From: an uncultured Candidatus Saccharibacteria bacterium
GTDB taxonomy: Bacteria; Patescibacteriota; Minisyncoccia; Phycocordibacterales; UBA9973
Assembly (NCBI GenBank): GCA_964622505.1
Contig: CAZUQJ010000001.1
Location: forward strand, 116,957 to 180,956
Direction of reading: 5' to 3'
Length of the DNA stretch: 64,000 bases
Positions 1 to 32,817 of the stretch are shown here, piece by piece (position 1 is the stretch's first letter; the number at the start of each line of letters is the position of its first letter). The notes below the pieces were generated by a model that saw nothing but the letters and a program-made list of their open reading frames with translations, did no database searches and was not told where the DNA came from. The translations under genes were made by a program, and so were the position numbers.

Positions 1-23
1 TACTTCAAACAGAAGCCAAGATT

Positions 24-737
24 TTGAATTTCCCCGACTTAGATCATAATAATGAGATTCCTAAAATTACACTACTTCCAACTGGAGCTCGAGGAAATGC
101 TTTCAAAATTAATTTTTCTGATTCTGCTCATGTGATCAAACCCCTTGAATCTATGCCTGAAAAAGAAATAGCAAATATTGCTTCAAATTTAGGTATTGGT
201 CCAAAACAATTTAAATCAAAAGAATATTTTTTACACGAAGAATTTATTGATGGAACACCACTTTTAAAATTGGAACAAGATAAATGTACCCCAGATTATA
301 TGGAGAAGCTTGGTTCAAAATTTGGAAAAGCTTTCAAAACATTGCATGAAAATAACATACTTATAAATGATCAAATTCTAACTGATGATCTTGGTAAATC
401 TCATATGATTATAGATAAAGCTGGAGAAGTACGGTTTGTTGACTTTGGCGCATCTATAGATATTAGCGATTACCCCAATATCTCTGATGAATCAGTAATT
501 TCTTTGATACGGACCGATCCATTTATGGCATTTAAAATGATGAACATTGATTTTTCATCAGAAGGACAAAAAAAAGAATTAATAAAAGGTTACAAAGAGA
601 ATATACTTTCTGAAATGAAAACCAAAGAGGATTTATTGAGAAAAGATATTCAACTTTTAAATGAAGGACTTTTTTTCCTAAGAGATAGATTACCAAATGT
701 TGATTATTTTATACAAGGGATTAATAGTATAAAATAG
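24..737 (+). CDS. Protein-kinase-like fold protein (APH/ChoK/Kdo-kinase-like). The ORF is open to the window edge, so the 5' end may be truncated; the TTG start is uncertain.
   Basis: Translation has an HENNILINDQIL catalytic-loop-like segment followed by a FVDFGAS (DFG) motif. No stop occurs upstream in frame to position 3. Confidence 0.4.
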   Translation: MNFPDLDHNNEIPKITLLPTGARGNAFKINFSDSAHVIKPLESMPEKEIANIASNLGIGPKQFKSKEYFLHEEFIDGTPLLKLEQDKCTPDYMEKLGSKFGKAFKTLHENNILINDQILTDDLGKSHMIIDKAGEVRFVDFGASIDISDYPNISDESVISLIRTDPFMAFKMMNIDFSSEGQKKELIKGYKENILSEMKTKEDLLRKDIQLLNEGLFFLRDRLPNVDYFIQGINSIK

Positions 738-739
738 CA

Positions 740-1414
740 ATGCTCCGCAGGCTCAAAACCCCACTAATTCTAATCGCGGTATTTGCGTCACTTATCTTGA
801 TTTGGCGGATTTTCGACTTGCCACCTGATGATGTACTAATACAAATGGTAAAAGGCTATTTTATTAAATACGGTATTATTACAGTATTCCTAGCATCATT
901 GATCGAAGGCATGCTATTGGTGGGTGTATATTTACCGGGTGGAATGGTTATATTCCTCGGGGTATTAACATCGCTTGGTGACCCCGAGCGCGCCACACTC
1001 TCTGTAATTATGACTATTTTAGGTCTTGGGTTGGCATACATATTTAATTACTTTTTAGGTAAACATGGCTGGTATAAAATATTGGTAAAATTTGGCATGA
1101 GGCAATCATTGCTCGATGCCGAGGCTAATTTGCAAAAGCATCACCAACGCGCTATTTATATGTCGTACTGGCAACCCAATCTTGCTTCGTTTGTTTCCAC
1201 AGCATCAGGGATTTTAAAAACAGATTTTAAAAAGTTTTTTATACATTCGACTATCGCCACAATTGTGTGGTGTACATTTTGGGGTACAACCGCGTATCTT
1301 TTGGGTGACAAAGTCCTGACATACTTGGGGCCAATATTTTTTGCAGTAATGCTGGGCTGGATTGGCTCAATAATATGGGGGCATTACAAAGGGCCCAATA
1401 ACATAAAAACATAA
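740..1414 (+). CDS. DedA/VTT-family membrane protein
   Basis: Multi-TM protein with an ...ASLIEGMLLVGVYLPGG... segment resembling the DedA E...LPG core. Start is 3 nt after the upstream gene. Confidence 0.45.
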   Translation: MLRRLKTPLILIAVFASLILIWRIFDLPPDDVLIQMVKGYFIKYGIITVFLASLIEGMLLVGVYLPGGMVIFLGVLTSLGDPERATLSVIMTILGLGLAYIFNYFLGKHGWYKILVKFGMRQSLLDAEANLQKHHQRAIYMSYWQPNLASFVSTASGILKTDFKKFFIHSTIATIVWCTFWGTTAYLLGDKVLTYLGPIFFAVMLGWIGSIIWGHYKGPNNIKT

Positions 1415-1464
1415 ATATTACCCATTTTAACCCAATATTTACGTTTTTATGATAAAATATTTAT

Positions 1465-1962
1465 ATGAGCAATAACTATGCTTTCATAGATAGTCAAAAT
1501 TTAAACCTCGGGATTCAAGGTCTTGGTTGGAAGTTGGACTTCAAAAGATTCCGTATATATTTAAAAGAAAAATATGGTGTTACAAAAGCCTTTTTATTCA
1601 TTGGCTACATCGAAGGAAATAATATTTTATATACATCTTTACAAGAAGCTGGATTTATTTGTATATTCAAGCCAACACTAAAACATAAAGACGGAACAAC
1701 AAAAGGCAACTGCGATGCAGAGCTTGTTTTGCAATCAATGATCGAATACTTAAATTTTGATAAAGCTATTATTGTCAGTGGTGATGGAGATTTTCATTGC
1801 CTAATAAACTACTTTATAGAAAAGGAAAAGCTTCAGGCCGTTTTAATACCAAACAAACTTAGATTCTCAGCACTTTTAAAGATGCATTATGTAAAGCCGT
1901 ATCTCAGATTTATGAACGATTTAGAGCATAAGTTAGCGTATAAAAAAGAAAAGGCCCCTTAA
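1465..1962 (+). CDS. NYN-domain (LabA-like, PIN-like nuclease fold) protein
   Basis: AFIDSQNL near the N-terminus, GNCDAELVL and VSGDGDF acidic motifs, about 165 aa. This is the typical NYN/LabA layout. Confidence 0.55.
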   Translation: MSNNYAFIDSQNLNLGIQGLGWKLDFKRFRIYLKEKYGVTKAFLFIGYIEGNNILYTSLQEAGFICIFKPTLKHKDGTTKGNCDAELVLQSMIEYLNFDKAIIVSGDGDFHCLINYFIEKEKLQAVLIPNKLRFSALLKMHYVKPYLRFMNDLEHKLAYKKEKAP

Positions 1963-2125
1963 GGACAAAACCTTAAAGGGTAATCTCTTCCATTCGTGAT
2001 ATGCATATTATAGCAGTTACGAGCGTTCGTAGTCAAGGTCTTGTGGAAAAGTCAAAAAGGCTATTTTAGGGCTTAATACTTGGGCGGGGCGCGGGGCCAG
2101 CCCCGCGCCCCAAGGCCACACTGGC

Positions 2126-2386
2126 ATGTACCATGTGGCATTCCTGTACCCATCACGATTAGAATTGGCCAAAGTCTTGAAGCATTTGATAGACAACAAT
2201 TACCCCATAGACGGCACCGCCGACCATGGCGTTTCCGAGGCCATATACCTGCGCGACCCCGACAATAACGGTGTCGAAATCTACGCCGACAGACCCAAAA
2301 AGGATTGGAAGGTAACCAACGACGGCATGGTAGAAATGCTAACCGAGCCCCTCGACATAAACGACTTTTTAAAAGAGCTTGAGTAA
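2126..2386 (+). pseudogene. Truncated C-terminal module of a VOC (glyoxalase/bleomycin-resistance/extradiol-dioxygenase) family gene. It lies in a GC-rich segment that is probably of foreign origin.
   Basis: The 86-aa ORF has HVAF...HGVSEAIYLRDPDNNGVEIY, typical of one beta-alpha-beta-beta-beta VOC module. The in-frame reading extends upstream (…GHTG-MYHVAF) to a stop at about 2075, exactly where GC content jumps. No N-terminal module is present. Confidence 0.45.
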
Positions 2387-2400
2387 CGAACTCTGTATTT

Positions 2401-5400
2401 TTGTGGTATTATGATTCTATAAATATGCATGAATATATAAAAAACATAGCTCAAAAATTTGCTCGCAATGATGTAGCAAATGGACGCGAAATGATATACC
2501 GTACTGATTTTGAGAATCTTTTGAAAGATATTTTTCAGGCTGACGGCAAGGTGACTCAAATTAATCACGACTCTACTAGTGATAATGGTAACAAGCCTGA
2601 TTTTGTAATTTCAAAAAACGGTGTACCAATTCTATATATTGAAGCAAAAGATATTGGGGTAGATCTTAATAAGATCGAAAATAGTAATCAAATGCATCGT
2701 TATTTTGGCTATGGTAACCTAATTTTGACGGATTATGTAGAATTTCGTTTTTACAGAAACGGTGAAAGATATGGAAATCCTATTAGTATTGCTAGTATTG
2801 ATAAATTAAATCGTACAATATCCGAACTTTCGCAAAACTTTTCATTACTTTCTAAAACTATTACCGACTTTGCTTCTTCTTACAAAGAGCCTATTAAAAA
2901 AGGTTCTCATTTGGCAAGAATAATGGGAGGTAAGGCAATGCGTATTCGAGATAATGTAAAAGATATGCTCCTTAGTGATAATGAAAAATTTAGTGACTTA
3001 CAAAAAATTTTGAATGTTGTGAAAGAAAATTTAGTAGCTAGTTTAGATAACGAAACATTTGCAGACATGTATGCTCAGACGTTGGTTTATGGATTGTTTG
3101 CGGCAAGATATAATGATAAATCTCCAAATGATTTTTCTCGATCAGAGGCAAGAGATCTGGTGCCTAAAACAAATCCATTTTTGAGAGAATTTTTTAATCA
3201 CATTGCTGGACCATCTTTTCCAGATAGGCTTCGTTATATTGTAGATGAACTTTGCGAAGTTTTTACACATGCAAATGTACATACACTTATGCATGAATAT
3301 TTTAAAAAAGAAAATTTATTTGGTGAAGTATATGAAAGTCCTGACCCAGTAATCCATTTTTACGAAGATTTTCTAAAAGAATATGATATAAAAAAGAAAA
3401 TGGAAATGGGAGTATTTTATACTCCACGACCTGTTGTGAGGTTTATTGTGCGAGCAGTTGATGACATTTTAAAAAATGAATTTGGTCTTGCCAGAGGTCT
3501 TGCTGATACTACAAAAATCCAAATAGAAAAAAAGGAAATTGATCAAAAAACTGGTAAAGAAAAGAAAGTCCAAAAAGAATATCATAAAGTTCAAGTTCTT
3601 GATATTGCCACAGGTACAGGTACATTCCTTAATGAGGTCATCCATAATATTTACGCAAATTTTTCTGGACAAGAAGGCCGTTGGGTATCGTATGTTGAAA
3701 ATGATTTATTGCCAAGATTACATGGTTTTGAGTTAATGATGGCATCGTATACTATTGCTCATTTGAAATTAGGTATGACCTTGTATGACACAAAGGCTGG
3801 TGATCTGAAAACTCGTCTCGGGGTTTACCTTACAAATACACTGGACGCTCCCGTAGACTACGCTAATCAAGGTAGTTTGTTTGGATTAATGGATAGTATT
3901 GCCCAGGAGAGTAAAAATGCATCTAGAATAAAATCTGAATACCCGATAATGTGTGTTATTGGCAATCCTCCATATTCAGGCATTTCAATGAATAAGCAGT
4001 ACACAGAAAATAATGATTACAAAGTTGAAATCGGTGGTAAACAAAAATTACAGGAAAAGAAAAATTGGCTCGATGATGACTATGTTAAATTTATTCGATT
4101 TGCAGAAAGCTTGATTGAGAAAAATGGTGAGGGTATAGTAGGAATGATCACCGCCCATGGCTATATAGATAACCCAACATTTCGTGGTATGCGTTGGCAT
4201 TTACGGAACACTTTTGACAAAATATATGTTTTAGACTTGCATGGTAATAGTAATAAAAAAGAAACAAGCCTTGATGGCAGCAAAGACGAAAATATTTTTG
4301 ATATTAAAACAGGTGTATCAATAATTTTGGGTATTAAAAAGCAAGGTAATATAAAAGATAAAAAATTAGCTCAAATCTACAAATCAGATTTTTATGGCCT
4401 TCGTAAAGATAAATTTAAAAATATTGAAAATGCAACTATCGATAATTTAAACTGGACAGAGCTCCCAGAAAACAGTGATTTGTGGGTATTAGAAGGAAAA
4501 GGTAAATTAGAATATAAAAAAGGTTTTTCGATGACAGAAATATTTCCCAAAAATACTACTGGTATAGTCACTATGGGGGATAGTTTTATTATCGATGAAA
4601 ATAGGGATGTTTTAACAAAAAGAATTGATGAATTTTTGCAAAATGATATATCTGAGAATGACCTAAAGCATAAATATGATTTAGGTAAAAATTACGCAAA
4701 GTGGATTATTGATAATAAAAAGAAAATCGAAAATAATCATTTAAAAATAGTACCGCTGTCGTATAGGCCTTTTGACATAAGGTATACTTATTTTGATAAA
4801 AATTTGGTATGGAGAACTAGAGGTGATGTAATGTACGGTTTAGTAAAAAAAGAAAACCTAGGCTTAGTTTTTGCTAGGTCACAAAGGAATCCTGAATTTA
4901 ATGCCGTTTTTATTTGTAACTCTATAATAGAGACCAAGTGCGGTGAAGCAAGTACTCAATCAGCTGTAGCCCCTATTTATTTATACACAGAAAACGGAGA
5001 AAAAATTTCCAACTTAAATAAAGAAATTTGGAATAAGATTAATGATGTGGTGGGTAATACTACACCCGAAGATATTTTGGATTATATTTATGCAAGTCTG
5101 CATTCGCCAAAATACCGCGAAACTTACAAAGAATTTTTAAAAATTGATTTTCCTAGAGTTCAATACCCAACTGACAAAAAAGAATTTGAAAGACTGGTAA
5201 AGCTTGGCTCAAAATTACGAGAACTTCATTTAATGACTGATCCAGAATGTGAAAATTTAATTACAACTTATTCACAATCGGGTAGTGATGTAGTAGAAAA
5301 GGTAAAATATGAAAATGGTAATGTTTATATAAACGACGCGCAGTATTTCGGCAATGTACCAGAAATTTCATGGAGTTTCTATATAGGTGGCTACCAACCT

Positions 5401-5523
5401 GCTCAAAAATACCTTAAAGACAGAAAGGGTAGAAAACTAACCAATGAAGAAATTGAGCATTATCAAAAAATCATTAAGGTATTGTTTGAAACTGATAAAT
5501 TAATGAAGGAAATAGATAAGTAG
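2401..5523 (+). CDS. Type IIG (MmeI-family) restriction-modification enzyme: an N-terminal PD-(D/E)xK nuclease fused to a gamma-class N6-adenine DNA methyltransferase and a C-terminal specificity domain. The likely true start is the Met at 2425.
   Basis: N-terminus KPDFVIS...ILYIEAKD (PD-ExK) aligns with the MmeI N-terminal layout. VLDIATGTGTFL matches MTase motif I and CVIGNPPYSG motif IV (NPPY). The protein is 1040 aa. Confidence 0.8.
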   Translation: MWYYDSINMHEYIKNIAQKFARNDVANGREMIYRTDFENLLKDIFQADGKVTQINHDSTSDNGNKPDFVISKNGVPILYIEAKDIGVDLNKIENSNQMHRYFGYGNLILTDYVEFRFYRNGERYGNPISIASIDKLNRTISELSQNFSLLSKTITDFASSYKEPIKKGSHLARIMGGKAMRIRDNVKDMLLSDNEKFSDLQKILNVVKENLVASLDNETFADMYAQTLVYGLFAARYNDKSPNDFSRSEARDLVPKTNPFLREFFNHIAGPSFPDRLRYIVDELCEVFTHANVHTLMHEYFKKENLFGEVYESPDPVIHFYEDFLKEYDIKKKMEMGVFYTPRPVVRFIVRAVDDILKNEFGLARGLADTTKIQIEKKEIDQKTGKEKKVQKEYHKVQVLDIATGTGTFLNEVIHNIYANFSGQEGRWVSYVENDLLPRLHGFELMMASYTIAHLKLGMTLYDTKAGDLKTRLGVYLTNTLDAPVDYANQGSLFGLMDSIAQESKNASRIKSEYPIMCVIGNPPYSGISMNKQYTENNDYKVEIGGKQKLQEKKNWLDDDYVKFIRFAESLIEKNGEGIVGMITAHGYIDNPTFRGMRWHLRNTFDKIYVLDLHGNSNKKETSLDGSKDENIFDIKTGVSIILGIKKQGNIKDKKLAQIYKSDFYGLRKDKFKNIENATIDNLNWTELPENSDLWVLEGKGKLEYKKGFSMTEIFPKNTTGIVTMGDSFIIDENRDVLTKRIDEFLQNDISENDLKHKYDLGKNYAKWIIDNKKKIENNHLKIVPLSYRPFDIRYTYFDKNLVWRTRGDVMYGLVKKENLGLVFARSQRNPEFNAVFICNSIIETKCGEASTQSAVAPIYLYTENGEKISNLNKEIWNKINDVVGNTTPEDILDYIYASLHSPKYRETYKEFLKIDFPRVQYPTDKKEFERLVKLGSKLRELHLMTDPECENLITTYSQSGSDVVEKVKYENGNVYINDAQYFGNVPEISWSFYIGGYQPAQKYLKDRKGRKLTNEEIEHYQKIIKVLFETDKLMKEIDK

Positions 5524-5554
5524 CTTTTCAATTTAATTATTGTAAAATATAGTA

Positions 5555-6256
5555 ATGAATTCTGAAGAGCTAAAAATTAAAGAAAATGCAGAAGAATTCG
5601 CAAGGTCGAATAAAAAGAAAATTGCGAAAGACATAATTTCTTTGTATGAATCAGAGCCGAATCCTGTTTCTGTTTTCATGGCAGGATCTCCTGGTGCAGG
5701 CAAAACAGAATCTTCGAGGTGGCTTATTAAAAAACTTACAGGGAACGACGATTCTATTTTAAGAATTGACCCTGATGAGTTGAGGAAATATTTTGAAGAA
5801 TACAACGGAAAAAATTCTAATTTATTTCAAGGTGCAACATCTATACTTGCAGAAAAAATACACGATTTTGCAATTGATGGTAGTAAGAGTTTTGTTTTTG
5901 ATACAACTTTTTCTAAATTAAATAAAGCTCAACAAAATATTAAAAGATCACTAGACCACAAAAGATCAGTCCAAATAATATATGTTTATCAAGACCCTTT
6001 GCAAGCTTGGGAATTTGTGAAGGCACGTGAATTAAAAGATGGAAGAAATGTTCCAAAAGATTCATTTATCGAAGAGTACTTTAATGCTAGAGTTGTAGTA
6101 AATCAGATAAAAAAAGATTTTCCAGATATTACATTATATATACTTATAAAGAATATTGACGGGACAACCGAGAAATATAAAGAAAATGTTGACAGTATTG
6201 ACAAATATGTTAAAGAGAACTATACTATCGATAGTTTAAATAATGTGTTACAATAA
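5555..6256 (+). CDS. Zeta-toxin-like P-loop kinase (zeta toxin / AAA_33 family)
   Basis: Walker A FMAGSPGAGKTES, followed by ILRIDPDELR and then FVFDTT. This spacing mirrors zeta/PezT. Length 233 aa; a TGtAAAAT -10-like element sits about 9 nt upstream. Confidence 0.6.
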   Translation: MNSEELKIKENAEEFARSNKKKIAKDIISLYESEPNPVSVFMAGSPGAGKTESSRWLIKKLTGNDDSILRIDPDELRKYFEEYNGKNSNLFQGATSILAEKIHDFAIDGSKSFVFDTTFSKLNKAQQNIKRSLDHKRSVQIIYVYQDPLQAWEFVKARELKDGRNVPKDSFIEEYFNARVVVNQIKKDFPDITLYILIKNIDGTTEKYKENVDSIDKYVKENYTIDSLNNVLQ

Positions 6257-6260
6257 TTAT

Positions 6261-6425
6261 ATGCTTAGCTTTTTAACTACAAATTCTAAAAAAGATACTG
6301 AATTCTCTAGGTTTTTTAGAGAGGCTTCTTCTGGTGAAAAAAAGAAAGTTTTTAAAGAAGTAATTCGTAAAGCTACTGAAGATCAAAGGAAAATATTAAA
6401 TAAATCAACTACAAAAACCGCTTAA
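6261..6425 (+). CDS. Small basic helical protein (54 aa from the second Met) immediately downstream of the zeta-like kinase. It is a possible cognate partner or antitoxin-like component.
   Basis: ORF overlaps the kinase stop. Lys/Arg-rich (…GEKKKVFKEVIRKATEDQRKIL…). A terminator follows. Confidence 0.3.
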   Translation: MLSFLTTNSKKDTEFSRFFREASSGEKKKVFKEVIRKATEDQRKILNKSTTKTA

Positions 6426-6441
6426 ATGCGGTTTTCGTTTT
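6414..6441 (+). terminator. Rho-independent terminator closing the RM / kinase / small-ORF operon
   Basis: aaaaccgc-ttaaat-gcggtttt hairpin followed by a T-run. Confidence 0.6.
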
Positions 6442-6544
6442 AATGGATATAATGTCCGAGATTTATAACGAATTAAAAAAGTACGCTAGTGCTACACGGC
6501 AAAAGTCTAGGGTGATAAATTTGTTTTCGTGGTAAGATGAATTT

Positions 6545-7180
6545 ATGAATAAAAATATAATCACCATACTAATCGTTCTTGCTGTCATTGTTGTGCTCTG
6601 GTCTATTTGGGGATTTTTTGGTTCTCGGGTTGAGCAGGCAGAATATACCGTAGTCAGAAAGAATAAAAATTACGAAGTTCGCACATACCCACGGCACATT
6701 GTGGCGCAAGCAACTCTTTCTGGAGATTACACGGGGGCGATGAATTCTGGGTTCTCGATTGTAGCTGGATATATTTTTGGTGGTAATACTAAAAAAGAAA
6801 AGATCGCCATGACTGCCCCTGTGGTAGAAAAGGCTGGTATATCAGAAAAGATCGCCATGACTGCGCCCGTGGTCGTAGCAGGCGATGAGGGTAGCCGTAC
6901 TATTTCATTTGGTATACCAAAAGGTTATACACTCGAAACCTTGCCTGTGCCAAATGATAAAAGAGTCCAAATAGTAGAAATTCCAGAGAAGAATTTTGCG
7001 GTGGCTCGATTTTATGGATACCGTAATTCAAGCATGATAGAAAAAGCTACCAAAGAATTAAAAGAAAAACTAGTAGAAGATAAAATAGAAATTGTTGGCT
7101 CCCCAAGCTACGCCGGCTACAACGCACCAGGGACTCCACCGTGGATGACTAGAAACGAGGTTTTGATAGAGATAAAATAA
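6545..7180 (+). CDS. SOUL/HBP heme-binding family protein with an N-terminal TM anchor
   Basis: KIAMTAPV signature (present twice through an internal 48-nt duplication) and a size typical of the SOUL family. Confidence 0.55.
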   Translation: MNKNIITILIVLAVIVVLWSIWGFFGSRVEQAEYTVVRKNKNYEVRTYPRHIVAQATLSGDYTGAMNSGFSIVAGYIFGGNTKKEKIAMTAPVVEKAGISEKIAMTAPVVVAGDEGSRTISFGIPKGYTLETLPVPNDKRVQIVEIPEKNFAVARFYGYRNSSMIEKATKELKEKLVEDKIEIVGSPSYAGYNAPGTPPWMTRNEVLIEIK

Positions 7181-8151: not shown

Positions 8152-8156
8152 CATAC

Positions 8157-8189
8157 AAAAAAGCCTAATCAATTGATTAGGCTTTTTTG
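8157..8189. terminator. Bidirectional intrinsic terminator between convergent genes
   Basis: Perfect palindrome gcctaatcaattgattaggc flanked by an A-run and a T-run. Confidence 0.7.
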
Positions 8190-8413: not shown

Positions 8414-8565
8414 AAAGTCAGTATATACCCATGTGGTTAAAAACCCAAGTTGCGGTGTGCGTCAGGACTTTCGTGGTATAATTTATATATTAAAATTAAT
8501 CTTTAATTTATGTCACACTATTTAGACAGTTATTTAAAATAATTTGTTATGATATAATATTTTCT

Positions 8566-9346: not shown

Positions 9347-9381
9347 CAAAATAAAAGTTGATTTCGTGGTATAATTTTTGG

Positions 9382-9785: not shown

Positions 9786-10241
9786 ATGCAGAAGAGGTTA
9801 AAAAATAAAAAAGATTTTGAAATAATCTTCAAACCTCAATTGACACCAAAAGAGATGCTAAAGCTCGGAGTCTTTGGTGGAGTCTATTTTAGTGATAAAC
9901 CAAACGAGTATCCAAAGAGCTGGTTTGCTGGAGTCAAATTTTCGCCAGATGGTAAACTACACAAAGAGTTAAATTATTTTGGAGTGAATGCTAGTCAGTC
10001 GCTCGCAGAGTGGAAACATAAAAATTGGATAAGCAAGGATGACCCTCGTGGATGGTTCCAGTGGTATTGTAGGTACTATATGGGCCGTCGCTTACCGAAA
10101 GAAGATACTCGTCAAATCAAAAGGTGGAAGGCAATTAGCCGGCACCTAGGCCAGATCAATGCCAATTGCAGAGCAGGTGATATAAACTGTCGTCCTCGCC
10201 AGCGCCAAGCATTGCTACATTGGGGATACAAGACCGTATAA
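9786..10241 (+). CDS. Conserved hypothetical protein (Trp/Arg-rich)
   Basis: Intact 151-aa ORF in gene-dense co-directional context. No motif recognised with confidence. Confidence 0.35.
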   Translation: MQKRLKNKKDFEIIFKPQLTPKEMLKLGVFGGVYFSDKPNEYPKSWFAGVKFSPDGKLHKELNYFGVNASQSLAEWKHKNWISKDDPRGWFQWYCRYYMGRRLPKEDTRQIKRWKAISRHLGQINANCRAGDINCRPRQRQALLHWGYKTV

Positions 10242-12504: not shown

Positions 12505-13113
12505 ATGGGAAATTTTGATCGAGGAGGTAACAGAGGAGGAGGAGGCGGAGGCGGAGGATTTCGCGGTGGTAATAGTGGTGGCCGACCAAGCTTCAACAAA
12601 AAGCCTTGGGGTGGAAACGATCGTGGAGGCGACAAACGTGCAGAGATGCACAAAGCAACTTGCAGTGAATGTGGCAAGATGTGCGAAGTGCCTTTCCGTC
12701 CATCAAGCGACAAGCCAGTGTTTTGTAACGACTGTTTTAGTAGCAAGCGTGAAGGTGTAGATCGCAAGCCACGTGCAGATTTCAATGATCGTGCACCACG
12801 ACGTGAATTTGATCGTCCAGCACCAAGACCAGACATGGTTCGTGTTGCGCCAGCAAACGATGAAGTCAAAAATCAACTTCGTGATTTGAATTCTAAAATG
12901 GATCGTCTCGTAACTCTAATGGAAAAGATGACAAATTCATCAGCACCCAAGGTTGCACCAATGATTACAAAACCAGCTGAAGTGAAAAAGGTAGTAGTAG
13001 CTTCAAAGCCTGTTGCTAAAGTTAATCCGCCAGCTGGCGGAAAGAAAGTTGTAGCAAAAGCACCGGCAAAGAAGTTAGTAGCAAAGAAGCCTGTGGCAAA
13101 AAAGAAGAAATAA
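12505..13113 (+). CDS. Nucleic-acid-binding-like protein with a Gly/Arg-rich N-terminus, a C4 zinc ribbon resembling the YacG type, and a Lys/Ala/Pro-rich histone-H1-like tail
   Basis: GGNRGGGGGGGGFRGGNSGG; CSECGKMCEVPFRPSSDKPVFCNDCF (compare YacG CxxCGK…PFRPFCSxRC); C-terminal KKVVAKAPAKKLVAKKPVAKKKK. Confidence 0.5.
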   Translation: MGNFDRGGNRGGGGGGGGFRGGNSGGRPSFNKKPWGGNDRGGDKRAEMHKATCSECGKMCEVPFRPSSDKPVFCNDCFSSKREGVDRKPRADFNDRAPRREFDRPAPRPDMVRVAPANDEVKNQLRDLNSKMDRLVTLMEKMTNSSAPKVAPMITKPAEVKKVVVASKPVAKVNPPAGGKKVVAKAPAKKLVAKKPVAKKKK

Positions 13114-16458: not shown

Positions 16459-17028
16459 ATGAAGATAACTAAAGCATTTTTTATAAAAGGTGTTGTTGGT
16501 ACAGACGAAATACTCGACGATGGTGTGCCACAGATAGCATTTATCGGGCGCTCCAATGTAGGCAAGTCGACAACTATAAATGCCATCACCTCACAAAACA
16601 AGCTCGCAATTACGAGCTCTTTTCCTGGCCGAACTCAACAGATAAATGTATTCTCTGTAAACAACTCAGTGTATTTTATGGATCTACCAGGCTACGGCTA
16701 TGCACGAGCCAGTGGCAAAGGGCGCGAGAAAATCCAAGAGCTGATCTACTGGTACTTTTTCAACTCACACTACGTCCAAAAGTATGTTGTGGTGATTATA
16801 GACGCTGAAGTTGGTCCGACAAAAGACGACCTTGAAATGCTCCACCATCTTGAAGTTGCAGGGAAGAGTGTTTTGATCATTGCCAACAAGATAGACAAGA
16901 TTAAAAAATCAGCATACCAAAAGCAAATGAATACTCTATCTAAACTTCTTCCCAAATACAAAATTATCCCTTTCTCGGCCCTGAAGAAGACCGGGGTTCA
17001 AGAGGTAATAGATACTATTCTTGCCTAG
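16459..17028 (+). CDS. engB: Ribosome-biogenesis GTPase EngB/YsxC
   Basis: GRSNVGKSTTINAI G1 motif and DLPGYGYA. TGcTATAAT lies 6 nt upstream of the ATG. Confidence 0.8.
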   Translation: MKITKAFFIKGVVGTDEILDDGVPQIAFIGRSNVGKSTTINAITSQNKLAITSSFPGRTQQINVFSVNNSVYFMDLPGYGYARASGKGREKIQELIYWYFFNSHYVQKYVVVIIDAEVGPTKDDLEMLHHLEVAGKSVLIIANKIDKIKKSAYQKQMNTLSKLLPKYKIIPFSALKKTGVQEVIDTILA

Positions 17029-17052: not shown

Positions 17053-18084
17053 ATGACAAATAAAAATATTCAATTGTATTTCTTTATTGCACTGTTGTGC
17101 GTTGTGTTCCTTTTAAATGTTGCACTATTTTTACCTTTTCTTACTTTGTTTGCCGTTATCGCTATTTTTGCCGTAGTGTTTTATCCACTGTTCAACAAGC
17201 TTAAAAAAAGATTGTATAACAATGGCAATGTAGCTGCATTTGTAACGATTATTATTGCAGCAATTATTGTGCTCTTGCCACTAACTTTCTTTACCATTCA
17301 AGTATTTCTCGAAGCTAAAAGCATTTATGCCAATTTAGATTCCTTCCAAAGTACATTATCTGGATTGTCTTCGACTCTCAACATGAAGCTTGGAACTTTG
17401 ATCCCAAATGCTTCGATTGACCTCTCTTCTTATTTAGCATCAATTTTTAGTGGGTTGACTACGAGTATTGGGAGTGTGTTTTCAAGCGTCCTACACTTTA
17501 CGACCGTCGTATTCATCAGCTTTGTTGCACTCTTTTTCTTTCTGCGTGACGGCAAAAAATTTATCAATAAACTCATAGCTACAAGTCCGCTTGACGATGT
17601 CCATGATCAGAAAATTCTCGCCAAGCTCAAACTAACTATTAGCGCAATCATCAAAGGGTCTCTTGTTATTGCGGCCATCCAAGGCTTGCTGACATGGATA
17701 GGATTTTTGATTTTTGGCATTCCAAATCCGGCGCTCTGGGGCGCATTGACAGTATTTGCATCACTTATCCCTGGTATTGGTACTGCGATTGTGATCACTC
17801 CTGCAATCATATATCTTTTCAATGTAGGTACGCTCTTTAATGCAGTAGGTCTTCTTGTGTGGGGCGTGGTCATTGTGGGGCTTATAGACAATGTGGTCCG
17901 TCCGGTACTTGTCGGTAAAGATGTTGATATTCATCCATTTATGGTACTGATGTCTATCTTTGGAGGATTGCTTATGTTTGGAGCTATCGGATTCTTGCTC
18001 GGACCACTCCTGCTCTCATTCTTTACCGTCTTAATAGAACTATACCCGACTATTACCAAAGGTGTACTTGATAAAAAAGAATAA
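17053..18084 (+). CDS. AI-2E family (UPF0118/PerM-like) membrane transporter
   Basis: 8-TM protein with …LIPGIGTAIVITPAIIYLF… typical of the AI-2E family. Confidence 0.55.
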   Translation: MTNKNIQLYFFIALLCVVFLLNVALFLPFLTLFAVIAIFAVVFYPLFNKLKKRLYNNGNVAAFVTIIIAAIIVLLPLTFFTIQVFLEAKSIYANLDSFQSTLSGLSSTLNMKLGTLIPNASIDLSSYLASIFSGLTTSIGSVFSSVLHFTTVVFISFVALFFFLRDGKKFINKLIATSPLDDVHDQKILAKLKLTISAIIKGSLVIAAIQGLLTWIGFLIFGIPNPALWGALTVFASLIPGIGTAIVITPAIIYLFNVGTLFNAVGLLVWGVVIVGLIDNVVRPVLVGKDVDIHPFMVLMSIFGGLLMFGAIGFLLGPLLLSFFTVLIELYPTITKGVLDKKE

Positions 18085-18830
18085 TGAGCATCAGCAAAAA
18101 TACAGCCAAATTGATACGATCTCTTCATTTGAAGAAATTTCGTAAAGAAGAGGGGTTATTCCTTGTGGAAGGCGAGAAGAGTATCATCGAGGTGGTGCAG
18201 TCTGATTTTGAAATTGTAAATATATACACTACTCGTGAAATTTTTGAGAAGTATAGAGATATCTTTAAGCCACTCGATGAGATTATAGAGATAGTACATG
18301 CAGATGAGCTTACAAAAGTAAGCTCACTTGAGTTTAACGATACAGGTATAGCAATAGTGAAGCAAAAAGAAAATACGCCGATTGAGATAGAGAGTGAGAT
18401 TATCGTCGTGCTCGACGACATACGTGATCCTGGCAATTTGGGTACTATTATCCGTACATGTGATTGGTATGGGGTCAAGAAGATCGTATGCTCCGATACT
18501 ACTGCAGAATTGTACAACAACAAAGTTATCGCTAGTAGTATGGGCTCTTTTACTCGAGTGCAAATTTTCTACACAGACCTCAATCATTTTTTGAAAGATC
18601 AAAACATTCCTATAATGGGCGCTCTACTCTCTGGTTTGGATGTCCACAATGTTATATACCCGAAAAGTGGAATTATTCTAATGGGCAATGAATCAAATGG
18701 CATACATAAAGAATTACAAAATTATATAACCGACAAAATCACGATTCCGCGCTATGGAGACGCTGAGTCACTCAATGTGTCTATGGCCACAGGCATTATT
18801 TTAGATAATTGGCGTCGGGGCATGATATAA
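18084..18830 (+). CDS. SpoU/TrmH-family RNA 2'-O-methyltransferase (RlmB-like, with an N-terminal substrate-binding domain)
   Basis: SPOUT motifs VVLDDIRDPGNLGTIIRT, LMGNESNGI and LNVSMATGIIL. Confidence 0.7.
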   Translation: MSISKNTAKLIRSLHLKKFRKEEGLFLVEGEKSIIEVVQSDFEIVNIYTTREIFEKYRDIFKPLDEIIEIVHADELTKVSSLEFNDTGIAIVKQKENTPIEIESEIIVVLDDIRDPGNLGTIIRTCDWYGVKKIVCSDTTAELYNNKVIASSMGSFTRVQIFYTDLNHFLKDQNIPIMGALLSGLDVHNVIYPKSGIILMGNESNGIHKELQNYITDKITIPRYGDAESLNVSMATGIILDNWRRGMI

Positions 18831-32433: not shown

Positions 32434-32817
32434 TTATCGCACAGTGCGATACCCTGAAGTATCTGCTTCCAACTCCCCTTCTTTGGCGTCTATTTTTGTA
32501 TTTTCAGAATTTTGGAAAGTTGGAGCTTTTATATCCATGTTTTTTATTTGTGGTAGTGGTAAAAAACTGCTGAAATCAAAATGGGCAGTTTTGTTTGTGT
32601 CTGGGTTGCTCGGTGTCTGGAAGAACTTTTCACCTATTGTCACCTTGATCAGATTTTCTACGTATGCCTTGTTTTTCTTGAATTGCTCGGATTCAAAGGC
32701 TGTCTTGAGATCAACACGCAAGAATACAAATACGAGAGCTCCAAGGATAATTATAGGTAGTATGATACCACCACGATTATGTATTGACCCTAAATTTTTA
32801 GTATCTGTATTATGCAT
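32434..32817 (-). CDS. Hypothetical membrane-anchored protein
   Basis: 127 aa with one TM segment. Confidence 0.3.
   Translation of the reverse strand: MHNTDTKNLGSIHNRGGIILPIIILGALVFVFLRVDLKTAFESEQFKKNKAYVENLIKVTIGEKFFQTPSNPDTNKTAHFDFSSFLPLPQIKNMDIKAPTFQNSENTKIDAKEGELEADTSGYRTVR

Follow-up and report, generated by a model that had tools for sequence, protein, structure and literature searches.

The interval 2067-2386 of the window (the whole 64-kb stretch of DNA analysed here) is, with a probability of about 0.9, a young pseudogene comprising the 3' two-thirds of a gene for a 159-aa single-domain VOC metalloprotein. A single 176-bp deletion stripped this gene of its promoter-like -10 box, its start codon, module 1 and the ligand His11. 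It is unremarkable as a pseudogene and forms the fixed border of a slot in which related bacteria have different restriction-modification (RM) systems; nothing in it would surprise a specialist. Judged by sequence comparison, the membership of the remnant in the VOC homology is beyond doubt.

The deletion and the remnant protein

The remnant lies on the forward strand and extends from the second position of codon 54 to a TAA stop; it is GC-rich, and its own promoter and start codon are absent. Immediately upstream the NYN-VOC intergenic leader is retained (1963-2066, forward strand), ending in ...GTGGAAAAGTCAAAAAGGCTATTT and collinear with homologous loci L001 (9890-9984) and L027 (as far as position 1927). 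At this locus in relatives, the same GC-rich gene continues for another 160 nt in the 5' direction. The deletion junction at 2066/2067 marks the absence of 176 bp relative to the undeleted allele of L027 (positions 1928-2103), a near-identical strain with an identical NYN protein in which the 176 bp are still in place: by BLAST, window 1446-2066 corresponds to L027 1306-1927 (97% identity) and window 2067-2103 to L027 2104-2140 (100%). The lost segment begins with 16 nt of the leader, in which the promoter-like GTGGTAACAT lies, and continues through the ATG and codons 1-53 to the first base of codon 54. The junction was placed by BLAST coordinates and direct reading, a MAFFT alignment of six loci having misaligned the window leader against coding sequence. 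As expected of a deletion pseudogene, there is an intact orthologue at the same locus (L027, with the same architecture in L001 and L012) and a defined loss. The junction is also present in L025, a separate assembly that crosses it at 100% identity and is 100% identical to window 1-2101, and in L026 and L054, from other samples, in which it has one T fewer than in the window. The deletions in the window and in L026/L054 likely go back to one event, despite this one-T difference between junctions.

The translated remnant is 98% identical to residues 59-159 of the intact proteins P0001/P0002 over all 101 residues, the hairpin-encoded peptide included, and the intact 159-aa VOC protein of close Patescibacteria shows 96-98% identity with the remnant; at the DNA level identity is 92.9% to L001 10161-10514 and 92.7% to L002. 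The residual 86-codon ORF starts at Met74 (2126-2386, forward strand) and keeps His76 and Glu124, with His11 and module 1 absent. No start codon (ATG, GTG or TTG) precedes 2126 in this frame as far back as the upstream stop at 2030-2032. This stop had been placed exactly at the compositional boundary by the sequence-only reading, which is wrong, as the true junction follows it by 35 nt and the GC jump (2082) by approximately 50 nt. Against Pfam Glyoxalase (PF00903) the 86-aa ORF aligns to positions 69-121 of 121 only and scores 20.9 bits (gathering cut-off 20.6), a marginal pass for half a domain; in the 159-aa relatives its counterpart is module 2 (beta77-81, alpha84-96, beta101-128) together with the C-terminal tail. 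Both the Pfam span and the alignment of relatives bear out the earlier description of a decapitated VOC gene with only the C-terminal beta-alpha-beta-beta-beta module. The paired beta-alpha-beta-beta-beta modules that characterize the VOC superfamily are present in intact relatives and not in the window ORF; the AF2 model of P0001 contains two such modules, module 2 spanning residues 74-128, and the top Foldseek matches of this model are VOC proteins without exception.

Full-length relatives, at 159 aa and two modules, resemble single-domain VOC proteins (PF00903) such as the 'VOC family protein' of Candidatus Nomurabacteria. When P0001 was aligned with the catalytic domain of homoprotocatechuate 2,3-dioxygenase (HPCD; PDB 1f1r, 1q0c), His11, His76 and Glu124 fell at the metal-ligand positions. 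In the remnant this 2-His-1-carboxylate site is incomplete, His76 and Glu124 remaining and His11 lying within the deleted 53 codons. Unlike single-domain VOC proteins and HPCD, the window copy lacks module 1, His11, a start codon and a promoter. Full-length P0001 scores 48.3 bits against HpaD (TIGR02295) and 42.4 against catechol 2,3-dioxygenase (TIGR03211), so far below the equivalog cut-offs of 321 and 320 that 'catechol 2,3-dioxygenase' is to be read as source annotation merely; the remnant, at 23.8 and 16.9 bits respectively, is also far under these cut-offs.

With its promoter-like box and ATG gone, along with module 1 and His11, the remnant probably yields no functional enzyme and appears to be drifting. 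The motif GTGGTAnnAT occurs five times in the window (1.7 expected); two of these copies, at 2403 and 6529, were confirmed to sit shortly ahead of a start codon, and the VOC gene's own copy was the first thing removed by the deletion. Changes private to the window amount to 3 nt in two codons, both nonsynonymous. Alternatively, the 86-aa ORF could be a functional single-module VOC protein, oligomerising to the paired-module fold and expressed via read-through from the NYN gene or from a cryptic promoter. VOC folds are paired modules, which separate chains can supply, and a weak AAGG is found 10 nt ahead of the ATG; moreover, both truncated alleles (window and L054) have kept the ORF, and the remnant frame as far back as 2033, free of stops despite a difference of 16/318 nt between the lineages. 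However, these two alleles differ by seven synonymous and five nonsynonymous codons, compared with 21 and two for the intact pair L001/L002, so that the nonsynonymous share of changes is higher in the truncated copies. The promoter-like box and start codon of the gene to which the ORF belongs are deleted, and in an alignment of 35 homologues (74-98% identity) most positions of module 1, His11 among them, show conservation of 90% or more. The best 120 protein matches are nearly all 157-172 aa long, mostly 159, and the sole 86-aa entry among them (P0036) is a further copy of the same deletion allele; the intact VOC proteins of approximately 86 aa that would have spoken for an intact gene were thus looked for in relatives and not found, and an exact database look-up of the 86-aa product returned no record. 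Other lineages carry different inactivating deletions, L022 keeping codons 107-158 only and L033/L034 being without codons 74-103 (His76 lost), which shows the VOC gene to be dispensable. A functional 86-aa protein is accordingly considered very unlikely, and a drifting pseudogene is the preferred reading.

Composition and ancestry of the VOC allele

The GC jump noticed in an otherwise AT-rich locus was confirmed by a quantitative scan, and the difference is the strongest GC and GC3 anomaly of the window. At GC 0.539, positions 2082-2391 rank first among all 310-bp windows of the 64 kb (mean 0.371, sd 0.053); among GC-rich segments 2082-2356 (GC 0.567) scores best, and the sub-stretch 2082-2125 reaches 0.86. 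The GC3 of the VOC remnant frame (0.62-0.68) is the highest among window ORFs of at least 90 codons, the 52 window ORFs of at least 150 codons having a mean of 0.35 (sd 0.07). Within this clade the VOC gene has a GC3 of 0.48-0.68 versus 0.22-0.35 for flanking genes, while Roseobacter and more distant Patescibacteria show no difference between VOC GC3 and host GC3. High GC is a trait of the whole VOC allele throughout this AT-rich group of Patescibacteria and no mark of fresh insertion. Translational selection for C-ending codons may contribute to the high GC3 (C3 = 0.45, G3 = 0.20). The second-highest GC patch (12505-12854) was considered as a second foreign segment and rejected; it is the low-complexity N-terminus of a zinc-ribbon protein, in which Gly/Arg-rich amino-acid content drives the composition.

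The sequence-only reading had taken the GC-rich patch either for a piece of approximately 310 bp from a high-GC organism, inserted together with a gene fragment and a hairpin, or for an assembly chimera in which reads of a GC-rich organism were misjoined into an AT-rich contig. An insertion would account for the abrupt GC and the GC3 anomaly, strongest in the window, but L001, L012 and L027 have the same GC-rich gene in full at this locus, preceded by the same leader, L001, L002 and L003 have it there followed by the same spacer, and the 176-bp loss is the sole difference between the window and L027. The closest homologues lie in other Patescibacteria (70-98% identity); the nearest ones outside this group, and those of high-GC taxa, reach only 60-62%, so no high-GC donor taxon is indicated. 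Insertion of foreign DNA is already refuted by this synteny and was rated highly improbable: the GC jump near 2080 is no insertion junction, and the true junction is that of the deletion at 2066/2067. As regards a chimera, short-read contigs do break in the palindrome described below, with Logan contigs from four runs ending or beginning within it (L025, L026, L027 and L029; L025 ends at 2101 and L029 starts at 2077). Nevertheless, L025 matches the window exactly up to that point, deletion junction included, L029 and L030 match 2077-6553 at 100%, the same junction recurs in L026 and L054, and at least five independent assemblies carry a collinear intact gene; on both sides the edges line up with intact loci of independent assemblies. 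The probability of a chimera is next to nil. Continuity across the palindrome here rests, at the level of sequence, on the window assembly, the 25-nt overlap of L025 and L029 and the identical sequence in intact genes elsewhere.

Between genomes, VOC identity amounts to 87-98% where other shared genes, NYN (74%) included, reach 65-76%. Atypical codon-position composition and discordant identity, the marks of horizontal transfer, are thus both found, and they pertain to the allele of the whole clade and not to a 310-bp insert. Since its GC3 is atypical and its identity far above that of other shared genes, the whole VOC allele appears to have been horizontally exchanged along with the border of the RM/defence hotspot. 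The earlier proposal of horizontal acquisition is in this respect plausible if applied to the VOC allele as a whole, whether by transfer into an ancestor or through repeated exchange, its GC3 being atypical of the host, and fails for a 310-bp fragment.

The GC palindrome

A perfect all-G/C palindrome with 12-nt arms and a 2-nt centre is located at 2086-2111 and encodes the VOC linker residues G61-P69. The sequence GGGGCGCGGGG occurs only at 2086-2096 (+) and 2101-2111 (-), with 0.06 occurrences expected, and an inverted-repeat search gave arms at 2086-2097/2100-2111 that are 100% complementary and form the sole all-G/C inverted repeat in the window. Folding of 2040-2140 gave -49.8 kcal/mol (z = -3.6). 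The perfect GC-only hairpin noticed in the sequence is therefore real, although it proved not to be a separate element, being coding sequence (WAGRGASPAPQ) of the intact gene; the linker it encodes between the modules is disordered in the AF2 model (pLDDT <50). The palindrome is present in the VOC genes of L001 (with one outer pair lost), L002, L012, L027 and L033, which form one allele group, and is absent from L003/L031 and from every more distant homologue examined. In the truncated copy of L054 the arms carry a mismatch, and decay of the palindrome has begun there. A metagenome scan with P0001 recovered three further close loci only.

That the palindrome itself functions at the nucleic-acid level, for example as a recombination site, as a regulatory RNA hairpin or, before the RM operon, as a terminator or insulator, is unlikely. 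Given the peptide AGRGASPAPQ, the chance of perfect 12-nt arms arising by synonymous choice is approximately 4e-6 with the codon usage of the allele and 1e-8 with that of the host, and two independent deletions end within 20 nt of the palindrome, the window junction 19 nt upstream and the L033/L034 deletion starting 14 nt downstream; both observations could point to such an element. A Rho-independent terminator was nonetheless rejected for want of a T-run, as the stem is followed by AAGGCCACACTGGC with no U-tract and a scan gave no + strand terminator at 2086-2111. A conserved structure was likewise rejected, the palindrome being missing outside one allele group, from the intact L003/L031 genes and distant homologues, and already mismatched in L054. 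The palindrome region has no Rfam match: Rfam 15 gave none at E <=1 in 1800-2600 and none at gathering score in the whole window, and ARAGORN found no tRNA. Finally, complementarity extends to the 2-nt centre, more than a stable hairpin requires, and for this reason a templated mutational origin fits better than selection for structure.

The linkers of the two allele types are separated by 10 substitutions in 18 nt (11 over the 30-nt linker region), reading GCA ACT CCA CCA CCA ATG in the L003 type and GCC AGC CCC GCG CCC CAA in the window type, and the right arm of the window type is, three synonymous sites included, fully complementary to the left arm GGGGCGCGGGGC, which is unchanged. Such clustered changes with a perfect inverted repeat resemble the products of quasipalindrome-associated template switching (PMC7202029), for which effects on coding sequence have been described in yeast (PMC8604942), although the ancestral state in the present case is not polarised. 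The perfect palindrome may have arisen by templated (quasipalindrome) mutation. Recombination could have contributed to the linker, because CCn-GCG-CCC-CAA is also found in the distant L006 and L008 alleles. To our knowledge there is no experimental system for the host organisms, a difference from the template-switch studies. Once formed, the palindrome may have promoted the nearby deletions.

The defence hotspot

To the left of VOC lies an NYN-domain gene (1465-1962, forward strand; Pfam PF01936, E = 2.6e-11), and this NYN-VOC neighbourhood is shared by the window, L001, L012, L022 and L027, with an identical NYN protein in L025-L028. To the right, the VOC stop is followed by a conserved spacer (2387-2424, forward strand) with a promoter-like extended -10 motif, GTGGTATTAT (2403-2412). 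Homology with L001, L002, L003, L020, L044 and L050 stops at 2408-2420, just before the start codon at 2425, where the first cargo gene of the variable block begins. This gene (2425-5523, forward strand) encodes a single-polypeptide RM enzyme of 1032 aa with HSDR_N nuclease, N6 methyltransferase and Type_ISP_C specificity domains (Pfam), and the 1032-aa gene call in L029/L030 is 100% identical to the window. The remaining variable cargo, also on the forward strand, consists of a zeta-toxin gene (5555-6256; PF06414, E = 9e-40; gene call in L029) and, last, an overlapping 60-aa ORF (6243-6425) with no Pfam match. At the right edge of the block a DNA-alkylation-repair gene (PF08713) survives as its initial 19 codons (6452-6509, forward strand), a remnant joined at 6509/6510 to the promoter and leader, both conserved, of a SOUL-domain gene (6545-7180, forward strand; PF04832, E = 3e-45), which is the conserved right flank and has 89% nucleotide identity to L001 14864-15489. 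The full DNA-alkylation-repair gene is found at L002 18435-19169, and L001 homology resumes at window 6509. The 58-bp repeat at 6452-6509, shared with L002, L003 and L020, was considered as an att or cassette site and rejected; it corresponds to the 5' coding start of the alkylation-repair gene and truncated copies thereof.

In L001 the order is NYN, VOC (159 aa), RM island and SOUL. Eight distinct RM/defence sets lie directly 3' of the VOC stop (in the window, L001, L002, L003/L031, L020, L022, L044 and L050), and L054 provides a ninth, different first gene after VOC. The 3' end of VOC with its promoter-bearing spacer is the conserved left border of a slot with variable RM/defence cargo, and the position at the edge of a defence island noted from the sequence holds, the hotspot beginning past the VOC stop. 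No integrase, phage or plasmid signature was found at the hotspot; blastn of 2060-2420 against phage and plasmid collections gave no match, and an IMG/VR scan with P0001 gave no relative. The arrangement resembles the defence hotspots that lie between conserved core genes in the E. coli pan-genome (PMC10121019), with conserved flanks (the VOC 3' end and spacer on the left, alkylation-repair or SOUL on the right) and RM or toxin cargo that differs per related genome. Unlike in E. coli, the hosts are ultra-small AT-rich Patescibacteria, and the border gene is compositionally atypical, of mosaic ancestry and repeatedly eroded by deletions.

A tentative possibility is that VOC, even as a remnant, serves as a homology anchor for swaps of RM/defence cassettes among distant Patescibacteria, the palindrome being a template-switch product that is now a fragile site. 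Repeated co-transfer with islands would then give foreign codon usage and 87-98% identity despite approximately 70% elsewhere, and the palindrome would give recurrent adjacent deletions and contig breaks in short-read assemblies.

In annotation, 2067-2386 is best entered as a 5'-truncated VOC pseudogene, and neither as a gene for an 86-aa protein nor as inserted foreign DNA or a misassembly. As an example of an RM/defence hotspot from uncultivated AT-rich Patescibacteria the locus is clearly delimited, with its borders fixed and with a border gene that shows a deletion polymorphism at population level next to genes of discordant ancestry. We know of no classical mobile elements at such sites in these organisms, and the locus is of use for understanding how such hosts swap defence genes.

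Deletion of the 5' third of a VOC gene

The abrupt rise in GC noted in the sequence-only reading was confirmed, since positions 2082-2391 (GC 0.539) form the most GC-rich 310-bp window of the 64 kb (mean 0.371, sd 0.053); among GC-rich segments 2082-2356 scores best (GC 0.567), and the first 44 nt of the patch (2082-2125) reach 0.86. The anomaly lies mostly at third codon positions, and GC3 in the frame of the VOC (glyoxalase/extradiol-dioxygenase-type) remnant (2067-2386, + strand) is 0.62-0.68, the maximum among ORFs of at least 90 codons in the window (reference mean 0.35, sd 0.07, for 52 window ORFs of at least 150 codons). Of the Pfam Glyoxalase (VOC) profile, an 86-codon ORF at 2126-2386 covers just the second half (positions 69-121 of 121), and restriction-modification (RM) and other defence genes begin after its stop; the earlier description, a decapitated VOC gene bordering a defence island, is correct. 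The upstream in-frame stop (2030-2032) lies about 50 nt ahead of the GC jump rather than exactly on the compositional boundary as had been claimed.

The frame translated from the GC boundary on (WAGRGASPAPQGHTGMYHVAF...) retrieved over 1,300 homologues, led by 159-aa proteins with 96-98% identity over the complete query. These align through the hairpin-encoded peptide, indicating that the hairpin is coding sequence of a longer gene. In a related contig, L001, the gene order is NYN, VOC (159 aa), RM/defence genes and SOUL, and in a second, L002, DM13, VOC (159 aa) and a type III RM system. Side-by-side reading of the DNA showed that the NYN-VOC leader is retained in the window to ...GTCAAAAAGGCTATTT (2066) and that the next base belongs to VOC codon 54 (TAGGGCTTAATACTTGGG). 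The spacer 3' of the VOC stop, TGTATTTTTGTGGTATTAT, is kept in all loci compared.

Independent short-read assemblies were found by look-up of the exact NYN and zeta-toxin proteins of the window. Contigs L025 (SRR12762304), L029 (SRR12762303) and L030 (SRR12762304) are 100% identical to window positions 1-2101 (spanning the junction), 2077-6508 and 2309-6553, respectively. The NYN protein of L027 (SRR26425191) is identical to that of the window, with 97% identity over window 1446-2066, and this contig carries the undeleted form ...GGGCTATTT[GTGGTAACATAACCAT ATG AAA GTA ... CAC CAT A]TAGGGCTTAATACTTGGGCGGGG, of which the bracketed part is absent from the window. Exactly 176 bp (L027 1928-2103) are missing: 16 leader nt and, from the coding sequence, 160 nt (codons 1-53 and one further base). 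The same junction minus one T is present in L026 (SRR26424591) and in L054 (ENA ERZ28653976), the source of P0036, the sole 86-aa database entry. Two origins had been suggested for the patch. An assembly chimera is contradicted by the 100% matches and by recurrence of the junction in L026 and L054, and an inserted 310-bp foreign fragment by the 176-bp loss from a longer gene seen against L027, with the same neighbourhood in L001. As the junction recurs in L025, L026 and L054 and the intact form is present in L027, the deletion is a genuine allele circulating in several samples beside the intact one.

The intact 159-aa protein P0001 aligns to the catalytic domain of homoprotocatechuate 2,3-dioxygenase, with His11, His76 and Glu124 at its three metal-ligand positions. 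AlphaFold2 modelling of P0001 from 36 aligned sequences (mean pLDDT 71) gave a structure whose Foldseek matches were exclusively VOC proteins. It comprises a first module (beta12-15, alpha19-29, beta33-38, beta42-46), a linker modelled at low confidence (residues 48-72) and a second module (beta77-81, alpha84-96, beta101-106, beta110-116, beta122-128) followed by a C-terminal helix. From this layout and the ligand alignment, the window remnant consists of linker, module 2 and tail, without module 1 and His11. Downstream of the stop at 2030-2032, the first in-frame start codon is Met74 at 2126.

The motif GTGGTAnnAT is found five times in the window (1.7 expected), at 2403-2412, 6529-6538, 8473-8482 and 9366-9375 (+) and 32762-32771 (-); it is extended -10-like (TGnTAnnAT). 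The copies at 2403 and 6529, the two checked, lie 6-12 nt ahead of a start codon, suggesting that transcripts in this organism are leaderless or carry a very short leader. In L001, L012 and L027 the VOC gene has a copy of its own, GTGGTAACAT, placed 6 nt ahead of the ATG. The deletion takes out this sequence first, so that the putative, motif-based VOC promoter is probably gone from the window copy. The deletion removed promoter-like motif, start codon, module 1 and His11 to leave the remnant.

Composition and probable exchange of the VOC allele

GC3 of VOC exceeds that of the flanking genes in L001 (0.54 vs 0.27), L002 (0.55 vs 0.23), L003 (0.48 vs 0.22), L012 (0.49 vs 0.30), L017 (0.56 vs 0.29) and L008 (0.59 vs 0.35). 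The entire allele, and not a 310-bp piece, is therefore compositionally atypical wherever present in this clade; the label "foreign" fails for a 310-bp insert and is partly right for the whole allele (0.48-0.59 vs 0.22-0.35 in the flanks of these six loci). GC3 of VOC is the same as that of the host in more distant Patescibacteria (L004-L007, L009-L011, L023), Roseobacter and Sulfitobacter. The second-highest GC patch of the window (12505-12854, 0.53) encodes the Gly/Arg-rich low-complexity N-terminus (GGNRGGGGGGGGFRGGNSGG) of a 202-aa, Lys-rich CxxC zinc-ribbon protein; a foreign origin was rejected here, as GC is set by amino-acid content. No tRNA or tmRNA genes and no Rfam families at gathering score were detected across the entire 64-kb window.

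Identities between the window and its relatives are mosaic. Against L012, NYN is 74% and VOC 98.5% identical; against L022, NYN is 91%, the VOC remnant 78% and other shared genes 68-70%; and the L017/L020 genome matches the window at 65-75% in other shared genes and at 87-96% in VOC. The adjacent genes are thus discordant, NYN being 91% identical to L022 (window 1446-2015) and 74-76% to L001/L012 (1407-1793), with VOC 93-98% identical to L001 and L012, which indicates recombination breakpoints within the NYN-VOC spacer. The closest homologues outside Patescibacteria reach only 60-62% identity. From these data we infer that the allele was probably exchanged among Patescibacteria with the adjacent hotspot rather than recently imported from a high-GC phylum. 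Phage, plasmid and IMG/VR searches gave no mobile-element link, and no donor was identified.

A GC palindrome in the VOC linker

The GC-only hairpin, described as 11 bp, is real and unique in the window: GGGGCGCGGGG occurs only at 2086-2096 and, on the opposite strand, 2101-2111 (0.06 expected). Its arms are in fact 12 nt with a 2-nt centre, forming the sole all-G/C inverted repeat of the window, and it encodes G61-P69 within the low-confidence linker. Only alleles coding for the peptide AGRGASPAPQ have it (window, L001, L002, L012, L027, L033); it is missing from intact L003/L031 (TGRGATPPPM) and all more distant homologues. A conserved functional structure was rejected, given this single peptide group, an arm mismatch already present in L054, and absence of both a following T-tract and an Rfam match. 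Neither is the palindrome a trivial by-product of the peptide, because the chance of perfect 12-nt arms from synonymous choice given AGRGASPAPQ is about 4e-6 (allele codon usage) or 1e-8 (host usage). Relative to L003 the left arm is unchanged and 10 substitutions fall within 18 nt (11 over the 30-nt linker region), three of them synonymous; these clustered differences render the right arm the exact complement of the left, to within 2 nt of the centre. In this unpolarised comparison the cluster carries an apparent signature of quasipalindrome template-switch mutation, as described elsewhere (PMC7202029, PMC8604942). As CCn-GCG-CCC-CAA is also present in the distant L006 and L008 alleles, the change between L003-type and window-type may have run in either direction.

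Two deletions end less than 20 nt from the palindrome, that of the window 19 nt upstream and that of L033/L034 14 nt downstream. Logan contigs (n=4) end inside it, L025, L026 and L027 ending at window 2101, 2094 and 2103 and L029 starting at 2077, and contigs L012, L017, L020, L044 and L050 also break within VOC. Spread over many samples, these breaks fit coverage loss at a GC hairpin, and also graph branching where one shared gene precedes different islands in co-occurring strains. Together with the nearby deletion ends they suggest a fragile or hard-to-sequence site. In L017 (about 10170-10225, near a contig end of MAG SRP285395_co1_239) VOC reads G17 then C24 at the exact palindrome position, in frame and 15 nt longer (peptide AGGGGGAPPPPPPPRGH), either a sequencing/assembly artefact at the hairpin or a real expansion. 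The next contig of this MAG, L020, begins inside VOC.

The defence hotspot and possible decay of the remnant

Homology of the window to its relatives ends at 2408-2420, a few bases before the first cargo start codon, and with L001 picks up again at 6509. The cargo immediately following the VOC stop is a single-chain HSDR_N/N6-methyltransferase/Type_ISP_C enzyme (2425-5523, +) and a zeta toxin (5555-6256, +) in the window; EcoRI-type methylase, Ymh, GmrSD and HNH in L001; type III RM and Fic in L002; C5 and N4/N6 methylases with HNH in L003/L031; type III-like RM and DpnI-like in L020; Dam and N6_N4 methylases in L022; two different ResIII-Eco57I giants in L044 and L050; and an HsdR-like N-terminus in L054. 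Because L054 joins the same truncated VOC allele to a first cargo gene unlike that of the window, the remnant has outlived at least one island swap.

The antitoxin gene leads in classical epsilon/zeta modules, whereas here no small ORF precedes the zeta-toxin gene. Within the toxin block (5555-6425) a 60-aa ORF without a family match (6243-6425) overlaps the 3' side of the toxin gene; as it trails that gene, it could be a candidate unconventional antitoxin. Beyond the SOUL gene (6545-7180, +), a perfect 17+17-nt palindrome at 8156-8189 (CAAAAAAGCCTAATCAA/TTGATTAGGCTTTTTTG) resembles a bidirectional terminator and is kept in L001, L020 and L022, with BLAST matches in both orientations.

The right border in the window is a second relic, in which the opening 19 codons of a DNA-alkylation-repair gene (PF08713; 6452-6509) are joined to the SOUL-gene promoter. 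Truncated PF08713 5' copies of about 19 codons border the defence block on its right side in the window, L003 (15113-15173) and L020 (6588-6645). In L002, copies at 16509-16562, 17896-17953 and 18456-18513 lie behind each of three successive modules (type III RM, Fic, an 89-aa gene), only the last being part of a full gene. The repeated copies look like the footprint of successive cassette acquisitions. With core genes flanking the cargo, this architecture is like that of defence hotspots reported for E. coli, which likewise lie between core genes (PMC10121019).

The private substitutions of the window remnant (3 nt in 2 codons) are both nonsynonymous (V145L, L154F), and those of L001 VOC are 7 synonymous and 0 nonsynonymous. 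Between the truncated alleles of window and L054, 7 codons differ synonymously and 5 nonsynonymously; for the intact alleles of L001 and L002 the counts are 21 and 2. This evidence, modest in extent, is consistent with a remnant that may be decaying. VOC has been inactivated independently in other lineages: L022 (10004-10156) retains codons 107-158 only (78% identity), and L033 (6001-6390) and L034 (644-1030) have lost codons 74-103 in frame, removing His76.

The window copy is best read as a young pseudogene, produced by deletion from a gene of a known and annotated family (VOC), its unusual composition inherited from a horizontally exchanged parent allele (probability about 0.9). A joint reading, with the border gene as an exchange anchor and the palindrome as a fragile site born of template switching, is speculative and rather unlikely. 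The locus joins already known kinds, a VOC pseudogene and a core-flanked defence hotspot, and the VOC gene itself is evidently dispensable and repeatedly eroded.
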